Shown one piece after another: positions 1,239 to 20,641 of a DNA stretch of 20,641 nucleotides; positions within the stretch are counted from its first letter, which is position 1; every line of letters begins with the position of its first letter. The notes beneath the pieces are model-generated. The model searched no databases. It was not told the DNA's origin and saw only the letters and a program-made list of their open reading frames with translations. Source of the stretch: a virus (lineage: Duplodnaviria > Heunggongvirae > Uroviricota > Caudoviricetes). The position numbers and the translations under genes were made by a program. The stretch lies in IMG/VR virus record IMGVR_UViG_2537562190_000023; one strand, written 5' to 3'.

Positions 1239-3176
1239 TTACGGGTTATTCACTTCCACTGTTATACTTTCAATCAGCACCGGATATGTCGCACCGCTAG
1301 TGATATCGGTCACGCGCAATTTGTCTGCCGTAAACGTGCCGACCGGTGACTGTGACAGCATGAACGGCGTCCCGTCCTTACCATCAATGACCGGCGTCAC
1401 CTCAATACTGTTGTTACCGGCAAAACGGAAGCCCAGCGTATGCCATTCGTTATCAAATGCGCCGAATGACCCCAGCTTCGTGTTCTGACCAGCATTTCCC
1501 TTGTGGTACATCACATTAAGGTCTGTGGCATCGCTCTGTACGTAAAACGACGCCAGCAGGTTATGACCGGCATTACCTTCCAGTGTGACGCCCTGAGGCA
1601 GTGAAGAAACCGGCCAGTACAGCGCCAGTGCGTACTGATTAGCTGTCAGTGTGCCATCAACTTTAAAACGACAACTGATAAGCCCGCCCTTCTCCAGCAG
1701 GTCTGCGCCATTACCGGCATCATGCTGCATAAACCACGAGGAACTTCCTGTCTGTTTGGTCCACCTCAGCGCCTTACCTCCTGCAGCACCTGCATCATCA
1801 ACTACCAATGCACGCCCTCCTTCAGCTCCCCATCCCTGCGGATTCAGTAAACCACCTGACTCTGTTGCACGGTAATAAAGCAGCGTTGTCACTGATTTCC
1901 CGTCCGTTGACGGTGTTGATGGTGTGTCCGGTGACGGCTTCTCATCCGGCGGCATCACAACCTGTTCCCCACCCTCCAGTTCAGCCGTCCGTCCTGCATG
2001 GAGAAGAATCGCTGAGGCAAGACGGTCAGAAATAATCCCCCTGCGTGCCCATGAGCTGAAATGGCTCGCACGGTCTGCTGACGTCCAGTTTGCCGACGTC
2101 CGGGAGGCCGCACCGTAATATCCTGATGCCGGAATATCCGGGTCTTCTTCCGGTTTGTTCGTCGGGACATTTGCTCCGTTCTCATCGGTCATGAACGGCA
2201 CAAAGTGAATATTCTTTTCCGTTTTGTTTTTGTAACTGCCGTACACCGTCTGGTAAGTGGATTCGCTCTTCTGCTTCCAGAAATAAGTTGTGTCTCCACA
2301 TATCCAGGGAACACCGTCAGCAGAACCACCAGCGCACTGTCCCACCATATCTGCAAGGTCCGTACGATATTGTTCCACTACTTCTGTAAAACGGGCTGTG
2401 TGATTTGCTGGCGTTCCGTCAAAGTCAAATTCCCCCTGCATCCACACCACGGCAAGCAGCACATTTTTCGGGTTCTTTGCCAGCGCGGCTTTTGTACGAC
2501 CGATGAGATCCTTATACAGCGGCCTGCCCACACCCCAGCGGGTAGAACTCTCTGAGGCACCGGTCACGTCACTGTATGTTCCATCTGCCCCGGTGGTGAA
2601 AGCTGAACCACCACGGCAGCACGGAACCAGAAGAATACCCGCATTCGCCGGTATAAACGGCAGCAGCTTTTTGGCAATATGCAGCCCCTGCCCCACGGTT
2701 CCGTACTGACCTTTCGACAGGTCAGCTTTCGGATGGTTAAGACGGCTCATGTCCTGTACATCATGCAGACAGTGGTCTGCCGGAATAATGTCGTTATATT
2801 TACAGGGAGCGCCATCCGGCGTCACTGTGCTGCGACGAGCCAGTTGCTTTATACGCGGGTCAGGACGGTCATATGTCTGCGGCAGAGGAAGCCCCTCACC
2901 GTAAGCCATGCCGTTCGACTGCCCGGCCAGTGGAATAACGTAGTAATAATCTGGCTCCGTGGTGACCACTCCCGGATAGCCACCATCCCCCGTGCCGGGC
3001 ACAACCACTGGCGTGGTCACATCCCCCTCCGCGGCAATCGCCTGCATCAGGGTATAAGGGGTTATGGCCACCGGACTACCAAACGGCTGCCAGCCCTCTT
3101 TCAGTTTGTGTGTCAGCTTTTCCGCAAGATCTGACGGCGACGCCGCCCTGACAACATCATAATGTTTAATCGACAT
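1239..3176 (-). CDS. nanS: Prophage sialate O-acetylesterase of the NanS-p type (DUF1737 N-terminus, SGNH/SASA esterase core, C-terminal lectin-like domain), 645 aa
   Basis: Long ORF with ATG at 3176 and SD GGGAGAAA. N-terminus MSIKHYDVVRAASPSDLAEKLTHKLKEGWQPFG is DUF1737-like. The esterase motif PLAGQSNGMAYGEG (GQSN block) is present. Size and position (downstream of Q, upstream of holin) match the NanS-p esterases of Stx and related lambdoid phages. Confidence 0.8.
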   Translation of the reverse strand: MSIKHYDVVRAASPSDLAEKLTHKLKEGWQPFGSPVAITPYTLMQAIAAEGDVTTPVVVPGTGDGGYPGVVTTEPDYYYVIPLAGQSNGMAYGEGLPLPQTYDRPDPRIKQLARRSTVTPDGAPCKYNDIIPADHCLHDVQDMSRLNHPKADLSKGQYGTVGQGLHIAKKLLPFIPANAGILLVPCCRGGSAFTTGADGTYSDVTGASESSTRWGVGRPLYKDLIGRTKAALAKNPKNVLLAVVWMQGEFDFDGTPANHTARFTEVVEQYRTDLADMVGQCAGGSADGVPWICGDTTYFWKQKSESTYQTVYGSYKNKTEKNIHFVPFMTDENGANVPTNKPEEDPDIPASGYYGAASRTSANWTSADRASHFSSWARRGIISDRLASAILLHAGRTAELEGGEQVVMPPDEKPSPDTPSTPSTDGKSVTTLLYYRATESGGLLNPQGWGAEGGRALVVDDAGAAGGKALRWTKQTGSSSWFMQHDAGNGADLLEKGGLISCRFKVDGTLTANQYALALYWPVSSLPQGVTLEGNAGHNLLASFYVQSDATDLNVMYHKGNAGQNTKLGSFGAFDNEWHTLGFRFAGNNSIEVTPVIDGKDGTPFMLSQSPVGTFTADKLRVTDITSGATYPVLIESITVEVNNP

Positions 3177-3291: not shown

Positions 3292-3653
3292 AAATAAAGG
3301 GATAACGATGATAGTTTGAGAAAAACAGAAATAACACTTTTGTGGCAAAGCATGGTGCCGGGTGCCTCCCGGTGAATTCAGTACCAGCACCTGAATCCGC
3401 GATTATCCCATATACCTGGTTGCTGATTGCCCCTCCGCACAGGGGGATTCACCATGCAGTAGTATTTTTAATAAACAGTAAACAAAAAAATCAAGCATTA
3501 TGCAGGCTGTTTCTTTTTATCACCGGCCACAGCAATACCACAATGCCGCAGACCAGCCCCCATCCGCCAGCACCGACATGATTCTGCTGGTGAAATCCAC
3601 CATCACCACCAGAAACAGCAGGAGTGCAGCCACAGCCAGGCGCAGTTTTACCG

Positions 3654-7828: not shown

Positions 7829-8587
7829 TCAAGTGCCTTTCCTGGTCCAGCCATATTTTTTGAATGCAGGCGCCGCTTCATCGGTTTGTAGCCATTCTGC
7901 AAATCGACGGGTTTCATCATTTGCATCCTGACGTACTGTAATGTTCATATCACGCCATATCACGTAGTCTGGCGCTATTTCCACGACATCACCAATTTCT
8001 GGATTACTGGCTGCCCAGTCAGCCCAGGTTATCCAGACATCTGCTTCAGGCTGATTCTCAAGAGCCTTACGTGCAGTTCCGCTATTGGGCGCATATAAAA
8101 TAATATTTTTTCGGATTGCGGCGACAGTTTCTATATTCCCTTTACGTCCGGCAATATCTTCCCAGACGCCAGTGCCTGATGTATTACTGGTACCACCACC
8201 ATCATTAACAATTACGCCAATCCCGGGTCTGGTCAGGTCGTCAATACTCCGGATATTTTTAGGATTACCTTTCTTTACCAGTAAAATACTTTTTCGCAGA
8301 TAAAGAGGCTGAATATCTTTTTCACTGAAGCTGTCTTTATGGTCCCGAATGATAGCCAGAGCAGATTGTTCTGATGCGCCAAACAAGATATCTGCATTTT
8401 TTTTGGCATCTTCATTCCATTTGTTCTGTGGGCCGTAATGAACGTTCACTATAATACCTGTTTTTTCGGCATAAAGTTTGGCTGCATCAAGCAAGGCTGT
8501 ATGCGGGCCACCAGGACCATACAGATTGATATCAGCATAAGCAGCAGAAGACAGGAATATTAAAAAACCTGCCATTATGTTCCTCAT
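7829..8587 (-). CDS. Periplasmic substrate-binding protein of the ModA/AcfC-like family, with signal peptide; orphan (no permease or ATPase partner in the window)
   Basis: 252 aa. N-terminal signal peptide MRNIMAGFLIFLSSAAYA. Sequence pattern fits ModA/TupA/AcfC-type binding proteins as recalled. Strong SD AAAAGGAG. The flanks are visibly AT-rich. Confidence 0.7.
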   Translation of the reverse strand: MRNIMAGFLIFLSSAAYADINLYGPGGPHTALLDAAKLYAEKTGIIVNVHYGPQNKWNEDAKKNADILFGASEQSALAIIRDHKDSFSEKDIQPLYLRKSILLVKKGNPKNIRSIDDLTRPGIGVIVNDGGGTSNTSGTGVWEDIAGRKGNIETVAAIRKNIILYAPNSGTARKALENQPEADVWITWADWAASNPEIGDVVEIAPDYVIWRDMNITVRQDANDETRRFAEWLQTDEAAPAFKKYGWTRKGT

Positions 8588-10225: not shown

Positions 10226-10891
10226 TCAGACAAACCCAGCCGCTTTCCGGCGTTCATATTCCTGTTTCAGCAACTCAATTGGCGTTGGTCCCGCAGGACG
10301 TTTGGGTGCTGCCAGTTGTCGCCGGACAGGCGGAACACTCAGGCCGTTGCTAACATGCTTTGCCCATTTCGTCAGCTGCCGTTCTGCAAGCCGTTTTAAC
10401 TCCCCTTCGGTCATCTGGCGTTCAATCCCCTTTGAACGCATCTCGAGGCAAATGTGATACAGCACAGGCTGAGACCACGGGTACTTATCACTTCCGTCGT
10501 ATCGCCAGGACTCATTGCGCCAGCGGCGGTACTCCTCCATCACAGCATCCACCGTCAGACCAAATGGATTGGCCCCGCTTTCCGAAATCAGCGCCACAAA
10601 CTCAGCCAGGTCCGGAGGCCATGTTTCACCCGCCCGGCAGCAGTCCATGCACTGGCGGCAGACCTGCCGGATTTGCTGCTCAGTCATCGCGCCAATCTGT
10701 GCAATCCAGAGCTTCGAAGGTGCGGCCCCGTTCTTCTGGGTCCAGCGGTTCGAATAAACCTCCCCCATGAGCTCCCACAGCTTCCAGGCCGTTTCCGTCG
10801 CTGATAAATCCGTTTTCACGTTCCCACTGCTCACGTGCTGCCCGAATTTCCTGAACTGCCCGTGATGCGGTTCCACCTGGTGCTGCTGCAT
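10226..10891 (-). CDS. Replication protein P-like (DnaB helicase loader)
   Basis: Similarity to lambda P as recalled (YPW motif, ELKRLAERQL, VPPVRRQL blocks). ATG at 10891 has SD AGGGGG, but this start overlaps the 3' end of the initiator gene by about 210 nt. An alternative coupled start at 10687 (ATGACTGA) would give 153 aa. Confidence 0.6.
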   Translation of the reverse strand: MQQHQVEPHHGQFRKFGQHVSSGNVKTDLSATETAWKLWELMGEVYSNRWTQKNGAAPSKLWIAQIGAMTEQQIRQVCRQCMDCCRAGETWPPDLAEFVALISESGANPFGLTVDAVMEEYRRWRNESWRYDGSDKYPWSQPVLYHICLEMRSKGIERQMTEGELKRLAERQLTKWAKHVSNGLSVPPVRRQLAAPKRPAGPTPIELLKQEYERRKAAGFV

Positions 10892-14324: not shown

Positions 14325-14806
14325 AATAACAGGAACCACCTCGCCTGACGTGGTTAAAAGCAGGCACACAACGCGAAAGCGTACGGCGAGGTAGCTGGTT
14401 CATAGATAGCCTGTCGTTAAATTTTCGTCGACCGTGCGCTTCCGGTTGTGGCAGTCCGCGAAATGGCGCGGCGGTAAGTATGGCTGGGGTTTCCTCCATT
14501 GCTCCAGAAAATGCACCGGGTTGTCAGGTTGACCATACGCTTAAGTGACAACCCCGCTACAACGCCCTCTGTTATCAATTTTCTGGTGACATTTGGCGGT
14601 ATCAGTTTTACTCCGTGACTGCTCTGCCGCCCTTTTTAAAGTGAATTTTGTGATGCGGTGAATGCGGCTAAGCGCACGCGGAACAGTTAAAACCAAAAAC
14701 AGTGTTATGGGTGGATTCTCTGTATCCGGCGTTAATTGTTAACTGGTTAACGTCACCTGGAGGCACCAGGCACTGCATCACAAAATTCATTGTTGAGGAC
14801 GCGATA

Positions 14807-14995
14807 ATGGAAACGTTATTACCAAACGTTAATACGTCTGAAGGTTGTTTTGATATTGGAGTTCTGCTCAGTAACCGGGAGTTTACTGAAGATGCCATTA
14901 AGATGAGAAAATATGAACCTTATCTTCTTAATGATAATTCCATACTTTCCAGAATTGCCCTTCTTGAACTTGGTATTATCGGAGAACAGCAGTGA
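14807..14995 (+). CDS. Hypothetical protein, 62 aa
   Basis: ATG at 14807 with SD GAGGA 7 nt upstream. The six-frame ORF starts at an upstream GTG. Confidence 0.4.
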   Translation: METLLPNVNTSEGCFDIGVLLSNREFTEDAIKMRKYEPYLLNDNSILSRIALLELGIIGEQQ

Positions 14996-15180
14996 CTTCA
15001 GCGTTTGCACTGATAATGACCGTTTTTCTTATAACGGGTGAGCCGCAGAATGTGATTACCGGAATTTATTACAGTAAGTCATCCTGCATTCAGGTAAGGG
15101 ACGAACAAAAAATCCCCGGTGAATGCCTCCCGTTAAAAAAAGTATCGCTGTACCTGAATAACGAAACACCGGCTGGATAA
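14992..15180 (+). CDS. Hypothetical small protein with hydrophobic N-terminus, 62 aa
   Basis: GTG start overlapping the previous stop (GTGA), GGAG 7 nt upstream. N-terminal hydrophobic segment ALIMTVFLITG. Confidence 0.35.
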   Translation: MTSAFALIMTVFLITGEPQNVITGIYYSKSSCIQVRDEQKIPGECLPLKKVSLYLNNETPAG

Positions 15181-15272: not shown

Positions 15273-16874
15273 ATGAACGCTGATAAAGAAGAAATTGCAC
15301 TATATTACGAAGCCAAAAATGACAAAGTCAGAAAACGCCTTGGGATTAAAGGTGGTTTTTACTGGCGCACAGCAAAAAAATTATCGGTTGCAATATCACG
15401 TGGTGTTGCTGCAATGGACGATGCCGGATTTGACGAAGAGGATTTTAAAAAACCCATCCGCGTCCATTTACCCGTTGTGAATGACCTTCCACCGGAAGGT
15501 GTGTTTGATACTGAATTCTGCAACCGATACGAAAAAGGCGGAGAAGATGGTATCACAATGATACTTATCGCGCCCTCTGTTCCGGACAAACCAGCCAGTA
15601 CTGACAATACCAACGTCAACGGCGAAGACATGGCTAAGATTGAGGAGAATATGCTTCTTCCGGTTTCAGGTCAGATTCTGCCTGTTCGCTGGCTGGCGCA
15701 ACACAACAGCGAAAAACCGCTCACGCACGTTTCACTGGACAAACTGCGCGCATTACATAACGCACAGGATGAAAAACTTCCCGCCGTTACCGCGCTGGCC
15801 ATCTCAAATAAAGCAGTGCAACTCGAACCGCTGGAGCTTCGGGATTTGTACAAACTGGTGCGAGACACTGACAAAGTTTTCCCCGCCCCCGTAAATTCGG
15901 ACCTGGGACTGATGACCTCTTTTATCGAAGCATACCTGGGCGCTGACTACACCGATCGCGGTCTGCTTACAAAAGAGTGGATGAAAGGAAATCGTGTTTC
16001 ACGCATCAGCCGCACGCCATCCGGCGCTAACGCTGGCGGCGGCATTCTTACCGATCGCGGCGAAGGTTTTGTCCACGATGATGCGTCAGTGGCGCGTGAC
16101 GTAGCCACTGGCGTACTGGCCCGTTCAATGGACGTGGATATTTATAACCTTCATCCCGCGCACGCTAAACGCATTGAGGAAATTATCGCTGAAAATAAAC
16201 CGCCATTTTCTGTGTTTTTCAGCAAATTCATCACCATGCCGGGCCACAAGGATTACTCCCGCGCCATCGTGGTTGCGTCCGTGAAAGAAGCACCAATTGG
16301 TATAGAGGCTACTCCCCACCGTGTCACCGAATACCTGAATAAGGTGCTGACTGAAACCGATCATGCCACCCCTGATCCGGAAATCGTGGATATTGCCTGT
16401 GGTCGCTCCTCTGCCCCGATGCCGCAGCGTGTAACAAAAGAAGGAAAACAGGATGATGAAGAAAAACCGCAGCCATCTGGCGCAATGGCAGATGAACAGG
16501 CAACGACTGAAGCAGTGGAACCGGATACAACTGAACATAATCAGGACACGCAGTCGATGGATGCTCAGCCACAGATAAATTCTGTTGATGCGAAATATCA
16601 GAAACTGCGTGCAGAACTCCATGAAGCCAAGAAAAACATTCCACCCAAAAATCCTGTCGATGCAGATAAATTACTGGCTGCTTCTCGAGGAGAATTTGTT
16701 GAAGGGATTAGCGACCCGAATGATCCAAAATGGGTGAAGGGGATCCAGAGTCGCGATGATGATGACCAGAATCAGGATAAAGCGGAACAAAACAGCCCAA
16801 ATGCGTTACAAAACGAGCCAAAAACAAAACAACCTGAACCGCCCCGGGTTTCCTGGAGAGTGTTTTATCTGTGA
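15273..16874 (+). pseudogene. RecE-like protein, N-terminal fragment truncated by IS629 insertion (last 13 codons and stop are IS-derived)
   Basis: ATG at 15273 with SD GAGG. Long stretches resemble the N-terminal region of Rac RecE as recalled (for example [80 protein letters not shown]). The frame enters the IS at 16835 and stops at 16872-16874. Confidence 0.8.
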
Positions 16875-16876
16875 AC

Positions 16877-17764
16877 TCAGGCTGCCAGATCATCGTTTCC
16901 GATGGAAGCATAATAAGCTTTTTCTGCTTCTGCCGGGGGAGTATGGCCCAGCCTTTCCAGCAATCGTCGATTGTTATACCAGTCCACCCACGTGAGTGTG
17001 GCCAGTTCCACTTCTGCACGGTTTTTCCAGCTCTTACGGTGTATTACCTCCGCTTTGTAAAGACCATTGATGCTCTCCGCCATCGCGTTGTCATACGAGT
17101 CGCCAGTACTCCCTGTTGATGCCAGTAATCCGGCTTCCTTAAGCCGCTGCGTGTAGGCCAGCGATACATACTGAGAACCTTTATCACTGTGATGGATTGT
17201 GCCGGACGGCCGACGGGCCCACAACGCCTGCTCCAGTGCATCCAGCACGAATGTTGTTTCCATGGATGATGAGACCTGCCATCCCACGATGTATCCGGCG
17301 AACACATCAATGATGAACGCCACATAAACGAAGCCCTGCCATGTGCTTACCCAGGTAAAATCAGCCACCCACAACTGGTCTGGACGTTCTGCCACGAACT
17401 GACGGTTTACGCGGTCGCATGCGGCAACGGCTTTCCGGCTGACGGTAGTGCGGACCTTTTTACCCCGGAGAACACCGGCAAGTCCCATAACCGCCATGAG
17501 ACGTGCCACAGTGCATCTGGCCACTCTGATACCTTCCCGTAACAACTGACGCCAGACTTTACGCACACCGTATACCTTGTGATTTTCATCGTATACGCGC
17601 TGTATCTCTTTCTTCAGCCAGTCATCGCGCTGCGCACGGGCACTGCGTTTATCCGGATAATGTCGCTGTTGCTGACAGTGGTAATACGTTGACGGGGCAA
17701 TATGCAGTTCGCTGCATACCGGTCCGACCCCGTACTGCTCACGCAGCTTATCCAGCAGTGGCAT
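16877..17764 (-). CDS. IS629 transposase OrfB (DDE catalytic domain)
   Basis: 295 aa beginning [29 protein letters not shown] and ending ASIGNDDLAA, matching IS629 OrfB as recalled. ATG overlaps the orfA stop (TAATG). Confidence 0.9.
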   Translation of the reverse strand: MPLLDKLREQYGVGPVCSELHIAPSTYYHCQQQRHYPDKRSARAQRDDWLKKEIQRVYDENHKVYGVRKVWRQLLREGIRVARCTVARLMAVMGLAGVLRGKKVRTTVSRKAVAACDRVNRQFVAERPDQLWVADFTWVSTWQGFVYVAFIIDVFAGYIVGWQVSSSMETTFVLDALEQALWARRPSGTIHHSDKGSQYVSLAYTQRLKEAGLLASTGSTGDSYDNAMAESINGLYKAEVIHRKSWKNRAEVELATLTWVDWYNNRRLLERLGHTPPAEAEKAYYASIGNDDLAA

Positions 17765-18090
17765 TATTTTTTCCAGAGGCGGTCGAACTCCGCCTTCGCA
17801 AAATAAGCGGAAGCCTGGCGAAGGATATCGTTACTGCGGCGCAGTTCACGATTTTCACGTTCCAGCTCTTTCAGACGCTGACGTTCAGCGGTGGTGAGTC
17901 CACCATCACCACTCCCGGTATCCCGCTCATGCTGGCGAACCCAGACACGCAGAGTCTCCGGCGTACAGCCAATCTTTGGGGCAATGGAACAAATTGCCGC
18001 CCACTGTGAGTCATATTCATCCTGACTTTCCAGAACCATACGAATCGCCCGCTGACGGACTTCGGGGGAAAAACGAGTATTTTTAGTCAT
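17764..18090 (-). CDS. IS629 transposase OrfA (HTH / leucine-zipper part)
   Basis: 108 aa [59 protein letters not shown]..., matching IS629 OrfA as recalled. An A6 run sits at the orfA/orfB junction, where IS3-family -1 frameshifting occurs. Confidence 0.9.
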
Positions 18091-18157
18091 CCTGTTTACC
18101 TCTTTCTCAGGGAGTTTAGTCTCCAGGATTTCCGGGGCGGTTCAACCTGAACCAGTA

Positions 18158-19003
18158 GTGCAACAAGAACCAGAAAAAGTTTGCACCACATGTGGTCAGA
18201 CCGATGGCGGCAACTGCCCTGATTGTGGAGCGGTAATGGGTGACGCAACCTACCAAGAGACATTCAACGAAGAAAGCCAGGATGAAGCCCGGAAAAAAAA
18301 TCCGGAGGAAATGGAAAATGCCGTGCTCCCGAATAAGCAATGCACCGAAGGCGATCAACATGCCAATGGCAATAATGAAACAGGCGAGACAGCAAATCCC
18401 TTAATTACGGTGAACGGTCATCACGTTATCACATCCACCAGCAGGACGTGTGACCATCTAATGATCGACCTTAAAACCATGGGAAAAAATCCTGATGCCC
18501 CGATTATCTCAATAGGTGCAATATTTTTCGATCCGCAAACCGGAGATATGGGACCGGAATTTAGTAAGACTATCGATCTGGAAACTGCTGGCGGAGTCAT
18601 TGATCGGGACACCATTAAACGGTGGCTTAAGCAATCACGCGAAGCGCAATCTGCCATTATGACCGATGAAATCCCGTTAGATGATGCACTGTTACAATTG
18701 CGGGAATTTATCGACGAAAACTCCGGTGAATTTTTTGTTCAGGTCTGGGGAAATGGAGCCAACTTCGACAACACGATTTTGCGCCGTTCATACGAACGGC
18801 AGGGGATCCCCTGCCCGTGGCGTTACTACAACGATCGCGATGTACGCACAATCGTTGAGCTGGGGAAAGCCATAGACTTCGATGTCAGAACTGCTATCCC
18901 ATTCGAAGGTGAGCGCCATAATGCACTTGATGACGCCCGTTATCAGGCAAAATACGTTTCAGCTATCTGGAAAAAACTGATCCCGAGTCAGGCTGATTTT
19001 TAA
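18158..19003 (+). CDS. C-terminal fragment of the IS-split RecE-like gene: DnaQ-like 3'-5' exonuclease domain
   Basis: In frame with 15273-16834 once the IS and one ACC copy are removed (…[17 protein letters not shown]…). Exonuclease motifs [13 protein letters not shown] and [13 protein letters not shown] are present. First motif reads MIDLKTMG. The ORF begins with GTG at 18158; an internal ATG at 18461 precedes the domain. Confidence 0.7.
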
Positions 19004-19074: not shown

Positions 19075-19326
19075 ATGAGCGAAGTAATCATGATCGTCTC
19101 TCCTGGCAAATGGGTATCCGAAGAGCAGTTAATTGCACTTAAAGGAATCAAAAAGGGAACGCTAAAAAAAGCCAGGGAAAAATCGTTTATGGAAGGAAGG
19201 GAATATAAGCATGTCGCTCATGACGGTATGCCATGGGATAACAGTCCATGCTTTTACAACCTGGAAGAAATTGATCGCTGGATTGAGCGCCAGGCATCTG
19301 CAAGACCAAGACGTCATCTTGCTTGA
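19075..19326 (+). CDS. xis: Excisionase-like protein (DUF1233 / putative excisionase family)
   Basis: ATG at 19075 (MSEVIMIVSPGKWVSEEQLIALKGIKKGTLKKAREKSFMEGREYKHVAHDGMPWDNSPCFYNLEEIDRWIERQ). Lies immediately upstream of int. An in-frame ATG at 19003 overlapping the exonuclease stop is an alternative start. Confidence 0.55.
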   Translation: MSEVIMIVSPGKWVSEEQLIALKGIKKGTLKKAREKSFMEGREYKHVAHDGMPWDNSPCFYNLEEIDRWIERQASARPRRHLA

Positions 19327-19345: not shown

Positions 19346-20641
19346 ATGAGAGAAGCTGAAATGAAATATCCGACAGGCGTGGAAAACCATGGAGGGAAAT
19401 TACGTATCTGGTTTGTTTATAAAGGTGTAAGAGTCCGGGAAAATCTTGGGGTTCCTGACACAGCAAAAAACAGGCGCATTGCAGGTGAGCTACGCGCCTC
19501 TGTTTGTTACGCAATAAAAACTGGCGCTTTCGACTATGCAAAACAGTTTCCCGCCTCACACAATCTGGAAAAATTTGGTGAGGCCCGACAAGATTTAACC
19601 ATAAAAGAACTGGCTGAAAAATTTCTGGCACTGAAAGAAACTGAAGTCGCAAAAACGTCACTCAACACGTACCGTGCCGTCATCAAAAATATTCTGAGCA
19701 TAATCGGTGAAAAAAATCTTGCATCATCGATTAATAAAGAAAAATTGCTGGCGGTACGTAAAGAGTTACTGACTGGATACCAGATCCCCAAAAGTAACTA
19801 TATTGTTACACAACCAGGGAGATCGGCTGTTACCGTAAATAATTACATGACAAATCTTTACGCCGTGTTCCAGTTTGGTGTTGATAACGGTTATCTGGCA
19901 AACAATCCATTTAAGGGGATCTCACCATTAAAGGAGTCGAGAACCATCCCGGATCCACTTTCGCGGGAGGAGTTTATCCGCCTTATTGACGCGTGCAGAA
20001 ATCAGCAAGCCAAAAATTTATGGTGTGTTTCCGTTTATACTGGGATTCGCCCTGGTGAACTGTGTGCGCTTGGATGGGAAGATATAGATCTGAAAAATGG
20101 AACAATGATAATCAGAAGAAATCTGGCAAAAGACCGTTTTACAGTACCAAAAACACAGGCGGGAACCAATCGTGTGATTCACCTTATTAATCCCGCAATC
20201 GACGCTCTCCGGAGTCAGATGGCACTAACGAGACTGAGCAAAGAGCATATCATCGATGTTCACCTCAGAGAATTCGGCAGAACAGAGAAACAAAAATGTA
20301 CCTTTGTTTTTCAACCTGAAGTGTCAGCGAAAGTAAAAAATTATGGTGACCATTTTACCGTTGACTCAATAAGGCAGATGTGGGACGCAGCGGTAAAGCG
20401 TGCCGGAATCCGCCATCGCAAATCGTATCAGTCGAGACACACTTATGCCTGCTGGTCGTTAACAGCAGGAGCTAACCCGGCATTCATTGCAAACCAGATG
20501 GGCCATGCAGATGCGCAAATGGTGTTTCAGGTGTACGGGAAATGGATGTCAGAAAATAATAATGCGCAGGTAACGCTGTTAAATACACAGTTAAGCGAGT
20601 TTGCCCCAACCATGCCCCATAACGAAGCGATGAAAAGTTAA
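19346..20641 (+). CDS. int: Phage integrase, tyrosine recombinase family
   Basis: 431-aa ORF (or 426 aa from the ATG at 19361). C-terminal catalytic region with R...H..R...Y signature (RNLAKDRF, SRHTYACWSL, MVFQVYGKWM). The stop codon is the last triplet of the window. Confidence 0.85.
   Translation: MREAEMKYPTGVENHGGKLRIWFVYKGVRVRENLGVPDTAKNRRIAGELRASVCYAIKTGAFDYAKQFPASHNLEKFGEARQDLTIKELAEKFLALKETEVAKTSLNTYRAVIKNILSIIGEKNLASSINKEKLLAVRKELLTGYQIPKSNYIVTQPGRSAVTVNNYMTNLYAVFQFGVDNGYLANNPFKGISPLKESRTIPDPLSREEFIRLIDACRNQQAKNLWCVSVYTGIRPGELCALGWEDIDLKNGTMIIRRNLAKDRFTVPKTQAGTNRVIHLINPAIDALRSQMALTRLSKEHIIDVHLREFGRTEKQKCTFVFQPEVSAKVKNYGDHFTVDSIRQMWDAAVKRAGIRHRKSYQSRHTYACWSLTAGANPAFIANQMGHADAQMVFQVYGKWMSENNNAQVTLLNTQLSEFAPTMPHNEAMKS

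Follow-up and report, generated by a model that had tools for sequence, protein, structure and literature searches.

We show that a prophage gene at positions 15273-19003 of the IMG/VR record IMGVR_UViG_2537562190_000023 (Caudoviricetes; 20,641 nucleotides, hereafter the window) joins a scaffold of the RecE type to a DEDDh exonuclease domain like that of phage T4 DexA, and that it carries two lesions. The metal-binding glutamate of the exonuclease domain is replaced by lysine (K630), and an insertion sequence (IS) interrupts the reading frame. We put the probability at about 0.8 that the gene is a RecE-scaffold/DexA-like prophage exonuclease inactivated by K630 and afterwards by the IS.

An insertion sequence splits an 805-codon exonuclease gene

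The stretch 15273-19003 holds four open reading frames (ORFs), not one, of 533, 295, 108 and 281 amino acids (aa). Removal of the IS and of one ACC copy joins 15273..16834 to 18148..19003 and gives 2418 nucleotides (nt), that is, 805 codons and a stop. This rebuilt gene is ECO103_RS09000 (WP_000990639.1, “exonuclease”), which is intact in Escherichia coli O103:H2 12009 and identical at 2418/2418 nt. The 805-codon reconstruction proposed in an earlier note on this DNA is thus matched base for base. Because the IS interrupts the reading frame, the exonuclease gene in the window is a pseudogene, whatever K630 does. Its parts are listed below; L001 is a locus from a complete E. coli genome.

15273-16874, plus strand: 533-aa ORF of the ORF listing, the 5' gene fragment running on into the IS
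15273..16834, plus strand: 5' part of the exonuclease gene (codons 1-520 and 2 further nt), identical to L001 from its position 10274
16832..16834: target-site duplication ACC, left copy
16835..18144, minus strand: IS3-family element, IS1203/IS629-like, 1310 bp, in the acidic linker after codon 520
16877-17764, minus strand: IS orfB, 295 aa, overlapping orfA
17693-17809, minus strand: ALIL frameshift pseudoknot of the IS (Rfam, 120 bits)
17764-18090, minus strand: IS orfA, 108 aa, overlapping orfB
18145..18147: target-site duplication ACC, right copy
18148..19003, plus strand: 3' part of the exonuclease gene, from the last base of codon 521 to the stop; intact copies are 100% identical
18158-19003, plus strand: 281-aa ORF of the ORF listing

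The IS has all the features of an IS3-family element of the IS1203/IS629-like kind: 13-bp perfect terminal inverted repeats (TGAACCGCCCCGG), a 3-bp target duplication, and orfA and orfB with a -1 frameshift signal. An O157:H7 element with the annotation IS1203 family (L011) shares 95.9% identity with it. In O103:H2 PV16-126 (L002, 3836-5145), the same IS (99.6% identical) occupies this very site and is flanked by the ACC duplication as well, but it points the other way from the window copy. An independent insertion at a preferred site, an in-situ inversion and an error of assembly orientation are all possible explanations of this difference. We rejected an IS hot spot within the exonuclease gene, as the IS lies elsewhere in both other matches that combine IS and exonuclease (L010, L011).

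A RecE-type scaffold is joined to a different nuclease domain

Residues 58-607 of the rebuilt protein are 72% identical to residues 50-591 of the K-12 Rac prophage RecE, with no homology past that point (BLASTP). The NCBIfam RecE model NF007259 is matched by aa 1-608 at model positions 1-603 of 877, with a score of 1021.9 bits that falls below the curated cut-off of 1269 bits. Together with a match to PF06630, these similarities place the N-terminal part with the Exonuc_VIII/RecE scaffold. The resemblance to the RecE N terminus that had been noticed earlier therefore stands; its length, then given as about 520 aa, does not. Residue 520 is only the insertion point of the IS and is therefore not a RecE-like boundary. 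The RecE-like part, which includes an acidic Q/E/D/P-rich linker, ends at about aa 607 (18406). The features of the protein are as follows.

15438..15833, plus strand: Pfam PF06630 (Exonuc_VIII) match, aa 56-187, inside the RecE-homologous aa 58-607
18182..18226, plus strand: Cys4 cluster C533-x2-C536-x7-C544-x2-C547, within the RecE-homologous part
18455..18970, plus strand: DexA-like/Rv2179c-like DEDDh 3'-5' exonuclease domain, aa 624-795, Pfam PF16473
18467-18469, plus strand: motif I Asp D628 (GAC), conserved column
18473-18475, plus strand: motif I Glu column, K630 (AAA) in MID628-L629-K630-TMG; the family Glu is GAA
18767..18769, plus strand: motif II Asp D728 (GNGANFD), intact, conserved column
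18917-18919, plus strand: motif III His H778, conserved column
18932-18934, plus strand: motif III Asp D783, conserved column

An AlphaFold2 model of aa 1-400 (window 15273-16472) has a mean predicted local distance difference test score (pLDDT) of 77.6 and a predicted template modelling score (pTM) of 0.37. It contains three separately folded segments (about 1-100, alpha/beta; 112-245, helical; 260-385, helical); locally these are predicted with confidence, but their mutual arrangement is not defined. A Foldseek search of the PDB with this model returned nothing below E 0.36, and a sequence search of the PDB with aa 1-606 returned no match. Judging from the model, the RecE scaffold may contain folds without a solved structure. 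The alignment of the N-terminal part is shallow, the homologue search having returned almost solely near-identical partial proteins from E. coli. The acidic region is probably a disordered linker, and the CxxC spacing of the Cys4 cluster suggests a putative zinc ribbon. In the literature, the function of the RecE N-terminal domain is called unknown.

The homology to RecE ends roughly where the PD-(D/E)XK nuclease domain of RecE begins. This domain (DUF3799) lies at residues 615-850 of K-12 RecE and is absent from the window protein, according to Pfam. The 72% identity stops at RecE residue 591, and a DEDDh domain then follows instead of DUF3799. This agrees with the nuclease-domain swap proposed earlier, and amounts to a clean exchange at the boundary between RecE scaffold and nuclease. 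Rac RecE and the window protein share the PF06630 region, the acidic linker, the Cys4 cluster and the same prophage slot, distal in the early-left operon before xis and int. RecE, however, ends in a PD-(D/E)XK 5'-3' double-stranded DNA exonuclease and is followed by recT, whereas the window protein ends in a 3'-5' exonuclease domain of the DEDDh type, with no annealase alongside.

A further form of the scaffold has no nuclease domain. Proteins of 657-671 aa from Escherichia albertii and E. coli (P0416, P0418, P0419 and P0420) are 82% identical to the window protein over aa 1-603. They depart from it at the same ...SDETGE.A junction, beyond which they have only a hydrophobic tail of about 60 aa. 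In E. albertii CP117575.1 (L145, 5001-8710), the nuclease-less gene is followed by separate gam, recT, yqaJ-type exonuclease, lar, xis and int genes, unlike the arrangement in the window. From these comparisons, the RecE scaffold appears to be a portable module that occurs with a PD-(D/E)XK nuclease, with a DEDDh nuclease or with none. Since these three alternative C-termini are joined to one scaffold at one junction, we argue that the scaffold has a function of its own. The 533-aa product that could be made from the IS-split copy would resemble the nuclease-less form, although it would lack the Cys4 cluster.

The C-terminal domain has a DexA-like fold

The PF16473 match at aa 624-795 (E 7.7e-63; 211.8 bits against a gathering threshold of 27) covers the Pfam model end to end, at positions 2-177 of 177. 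An AlphaFold2 model of aa 604-805 (pLDDT 82.7, pTM 0.80) has a DnaQ/RNase H-like fold. Its top Foldseek match is T4 DexA (8KEL; E 2.5e-11, template modelling score about 0.7), with RNase T, a DnaQ domain and Orn/REXO2 next; each of these matches has probability 1.00. T4 DexA is also the sole structure reached in the PDB by sequence (phmmer E 2e-5; family profile E 5.8e-16). No structure of Rv2179c was returned by sequence or profile searches of the PDB at E <= 0.01. Rv2179c of Mycobacterium tuberculosis, the namesake of PF16473, is an RNA exonuclease.

The motif II aspartate (D728) and motif III (H778-x4-D783; HNALDD, 18917..18934) are intact, and the latter defines the DEDDh subtype. T4 DexA (8KEL/8KEN) is the nearest solved relative by both sequence and fold. 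It is built on the same DEDDh residues, and its motif I is near-identical (FIIDFETMG in DexA, LMIDLKTMG in the window). Nevertheless, identity is only about 20%: DexA is a stand-alone protein of 227 aa with extra loops, whereas the domain in the window is part of a fusion with a 600-aa scaffold and carries lysine in place of DexA E9.

Lysine occupies the glutamate column of motif I

Motif I of the DEDDh superfamily has the form D-x-E and supplies two metal ligands; here it reads D628-L-K630. When near and remote homologues are aligned, K630 shares the column of the catalytic glutamate of the family and of E9 of T4 DexA. Nearly all E. coli relatives read MIDLETMG. Among 128 representatives at 50% clustering plus the query, 124/129 sequences have glutamate at this column. 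Of about 340 domains with all five positions covered, 309 have the full D-E-D-H-D signature, and 97-99% of family members retain the glutamate. The lysine codon AAA is one G-to-A transition from the family codon GAA. We found no alternative D-x-E elsewhere in the C-terminal domain.

These results confirm what the earlier note had read from the letters, namely a DEDDh-type fold with Exo II-like and Exo III-like motifs and D-L-K in place of D-x-E. Neither of the findings that might have overturned that reading was made, as the alignment reveals no true D-x-E motif at another place and lysine is not routine at this position. As an interpretation, the loss or alteration of catalysis through the lysine is supported by its place in the glutamate column and its rarity in the family.

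The lysine allele was counted with a 40-nt query in which every 28-nt seed must include the A of the AAA codon. It occurs in 30/5426 complete E. coli genomes, with one match in each, or 0.4% of E. coli copies. In IMG/VR, M-I-D-L-K-T-M-G is present in 11 contigs, 10/11 of them of E. coli type and with at least three domain haplotypes, while the corresponding glutamate pattern is present in at least 120. K630 is a rare allele, not a trait of the protein type. Its presence in the 30 complete genomes and the 11 contigs led us to reject sequencing error as the origin of the lysine.

The 30 genomes carry the allele in two types of prophage. One is Qin-like and adjacent to rspB (L001, L003), as in the window. 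The other is adjacent to potC (L004-L006) and has a different integrase and exonuclease genes of 823-830 aa. The annotations give most lysine copies as intact, with a frameshift in one (L003) and an IS in another (PV16-126, L002).

The same substitution recurs outside E. coli

Lysine is also found at the motif-I position in a stand-alone protein of Klebsiella oxytoca (P0300, 185 aa), which is 92% identical to the glutamate-bearing P0307. It occurs in a stand-alone protein of Buttiauxella gaviniae (L168, the same as L020), in two fusions to the RecE scaffold (P0128, 752 aa; P0133, 641 aa) and in two distant family members (P0248 and P0242). Each lysine lineage is nearer to a glutamate-bearing sequence than to another lysine-bearing one, and we therefore argue for several independent origins of the glutamate-to-lysine change. 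Among the roughly 340 domains, lysine is the sole substitution seen at the motif-I glutamate position, and the other four catalytic positions show isolated single variants only. GAA to AAA is, however, the likeliest point mutation of the glutamate codon, and mutational bias accounts for part of this pattern.

Three of the lysine-bearing proteins have lost motif II or III residues as well: P0128 (DKAHD), P0133 (DKNHG) and P0248 (DKNGD). Their domains are still full-length (Pfam E 1e-53 to 1e-65). Read from the sequences, such losses would be expected once catalysis was gone. The P0128 lineage amounts to about one sequence, with a best full-length match of 73% in a homologue search and one 139-aa fragment at 90%. 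A genome-wide scan of GTDB species genomes for the pattern M-[IV]-D-x-K-T-M-G gave 50 matches, of which 49 were chance and one, in Buttiauxella gaviniae, was real.

The architecture is common in lambdoid prophages and has no annealase

We find that the combination of RecE scaffold and DEDDh domain is common, already annotated in databases and not new. The C-terminal 856 nt have megablast matches at 8108 places in 4065/5426 complete E. coli genomes, with up to 7 per genome. PHROGs includes the same architecture (phrog_2082 and phrog_20376), and the protein goes by “exonuclease”, “3'-5' exonuclease” or “RecE family exodeoxyribonuclease” in RefSeq.

The window represents a lambdoid prophage's early region. 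Its plus strand encodes a cI-like repressor, ydfA, ydfC, DicF, dicB, the DUF1482 gene, the exonuclease, xis and int. Its minus strand encodes Q, RusA, DUF968, hokD/sok, paa, DUF1627, P, a DnaT-like O and YdaT; a cro-like gene is annotated on the minus strand in the identical region of L001. Neighbouring genes and other features are as follows.

14581-14632, plus strand: DicF antisense small RNA (Rfam, 77 bits), immediately 5' of dicB, an arrangement shared with the Qin prophage
14807-14995, plus strand: dicB, upstream neighbour
14992-15180, plus strand: DUF1482/ydfD-like gene, upstream neighbour
19075-19326, plus strand: excisionase gene (xis), downstream neighbour
19346-20641, plus strand: integrase gene (int), downstream neighbour
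1239-3176, minus strand: 645-aa NanS-like protein, cargo, with DUF1737, a SASA sialate-esterase domain and DUF6645
3317-3483, minus strand: STnc100 small RNA, above the Rfam gathering score
7488-7637, minus strand: sok antitoxin RNA of the hokD/sok type I toxin-antitoxin, above the Rfam gathering score
7829-8587, minus strand: AcfC-family adhesin Paa, prophage cargo

No recT lies next to the gene, and xis and int follow directly, in keeping with the earlier observation that no recT- or bet-like annealase is present. Neither a Pfam scan of the larger ORFs of the window nor the Prokaryotic Genome Annotation Pipeline (PGAP) annotation of the identical region revealed an annealase (RecT, Bet or Erf). 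No ORF of the early-left operon has the length needed for RecT, Bet or Erf, and none matches them. The order dicB or kil, DUF1482, exonuclease, xis, int recurs in 5/5 E. coli prophages inspected and in phages vB_EcoS-689R5 and Evi, and the annotations of these relatives contain no annealase gene. Since all relatives inspected share this annealase-free order, the absence of recT is the rule for the architecture. In mEp460 and Yersinia phage YeP1, a stand-alone domain occupies the same slot before the integrase region, and a small ORF precedes int.

In the identical region of L001, the PGAP annotation has a fimbrial pseudogene and ydfC, both frameshifted. These are signs of a decaying prophage.

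A probably twice-inactivated exonuclease and alternative readings

We propose that the gene stands last among the early-left (pL-side) genes of a Qin-like lambdoid prophage from an E. coli strain of the O103:H2 type. Intact, it would encode a modular protein of 805 aa. Its scaffold of about 600 aa, with three predicted folded segments, a probable acidic linker and the Cys4 cluster, would lead through a RecE-like junction to a DexA-like DEDDh domain, placed where RecE has its PD-(D/E)XK 5'-3' nuclease. By analogy with T4 DexA, the glutamate form (D-E-D-H-D) would strip nucleotides from DNA 3' ends by two-metal catalysis, and family knowledge suggests that its expression, from the left operon, would come early in lytic growth. 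The gene has no annealase partner, and the protein would therefore not belong to a recombination pair of the RecET/Red type.

The first lesion would be the G-to-A transition that turned the metal-binding Glu630 into lysine, an allele also carried by intact copies in about 30 complete genomes. It would remove a metal-ligating carboxylate and place a positive charge in the site, by which activity would be abolished or crippled. Most likely, K630 is catalytically dead. In DNA polymerase III epsilon (D12A/E14A) and in Klenow fragment (D355A/E357A), loss of the motif-I carboxylates cuts exonuclease activity by orders of magnitude. The second lesion would be the insertion of the IS1203/IS629-like element after codon 520. 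The present output would be at most the 533-aa scaffold-only product, whose activity, if any, is putative.

Several points weigh against this account. Lysine-allele genes are mostly full-length (about 26/30 of the complete-genome copies, and 5 full-length ORFs in IMG/VR), and the ratio of nonsynonymous to synonymous polymorphism (pN/pS) between lysine alleles is 0.2-0.3, neither of which a simple picture of a decaying gene predicts. Mosaic recombination could be the source of both. Because the lysine alleles are mosaics, whose differences may predate the mutation, this ratio is uninformative. The AlphaFold2 output gave no side-chain-level view of the metal site. The DNA substrate of the glutamate form is taken over from DexA, while the Pfam family is named after an exoribonuclease. 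Finally, we found no experimental paper on the RecE-scaffold/DEDDh fusion in the literature.

K630 might also be a selected state, in which lysine fills the emptied acidic metal pocket and keeps the protein stable as a blocker or dominant-negative, one that continues to bind DNA 3' ends or enters joint assemblies with active paralogues from co-resident prophages. TREX1 D18N, a metal-ligand mutant of a DEDDh enzyme, is such a DNA-binding dominant-negative. The recurrence of the change in E. coli, P0300, L168/L020, P0128, P0133, P0248 and P0242 would fit this explanation, as would the restriction of substitutions at this position to lysine beside the sporadic variants at other catalytic positions. 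So would the full-length domains of P0128, P0133 and P0248 despite their further catalytic losses, the occurrence of mostly intact lysine ORFs in two types of prophage and on at least three haplotypes of E. coli, and the presence of up to 6 domain copies in strains with the allele. We nevertheless consider a selected dead state unlikely. Mutational bias accounts for some of the excess, the allele makes up only 0.4% of E. coli copies and has one real match in GTDB species genomes, several of the diverged lysine lineages are one representative sequence each, and the window copy was later destroyed by the IS. The broader proposal is similarly doubtful, namely that the change is a recurrent, retained switch to dead proteins that bind ends or poison oligomers, on a RecE scaffold that is an autonomous module with interchangeable end-processing domains. 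Less probable again is an altered but active exonuclease, for instance one using one-metal catalysis with the lysine stabilising the transition state. The four other catalytic residues of the window allele are intact, as are most lysine-allele ORFs. However, 97-99% retention of the glutamate, and the further loss of motif II and III residues in the older lysine lineages, as expected with catalysis gone, make this very improbable, and we know of no DEDD exonuclease that works with lysine at the motif-I glutamate position.

A different alternative concerns the glutamate form, which might be a prophage-borne anti-phage defence nuclease of the HREX/EcD type that degrades the 5-hydroxymethylcytosine (5hmC) DNA of superinfecting T-even phages. 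EcD (“HREX”), an E. coli homologue of DexA, is reported to degrade T4 5hmC DNA selectively, to spare unmodified DNA and to protect against T4 (PMC12153337). Like EcD, the window domain belongs to the DexA-family DEDDh exonucleases of E. coli and its prophages. The differences make a defence role a minority possibility that we judge improbable. The gene lies in a repressor-controlled early-left operon beside xis and int, not at a typical lysogen-expressed moron site, and a search with the PADLOC defence models gave no match. EcD is short and stand-alone, starts MIDTET (judged from a cloning primer) and has all catalytic residues conserved, whereas the window domain is fused to a RecE scaffold and has K630 in place of glutamate. 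In the sequence alignment, the equivalent of DexA W152, the tryptophan of 5hmC recognition, is tyrosine here and variable in the family, and D169 is outside the aligned region. The equivalent of D90, a tetramer residue whose absence the authors tie to 5hmC-only activity (PMC12153337), is a retained aspartate.

Significance

By itself, the locus is a widespread, annotated prophage gene that was inactivated twice. The recurrence of the glutamate-to-lysine change and the modularity of the scaffold are of modest interest beyond it. The three forms of the scaffold, with a PD-(D/E)XK nuclease, with a DEDDh nuclease and with neither, are natural constructs for probing the function of the RecE N-terminal domain. 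A cheap comparison of the lysine and glutamate forms would be informative about natural “dead” nucleases that may be kept in prophage-rich genomes with several paralogous copies.

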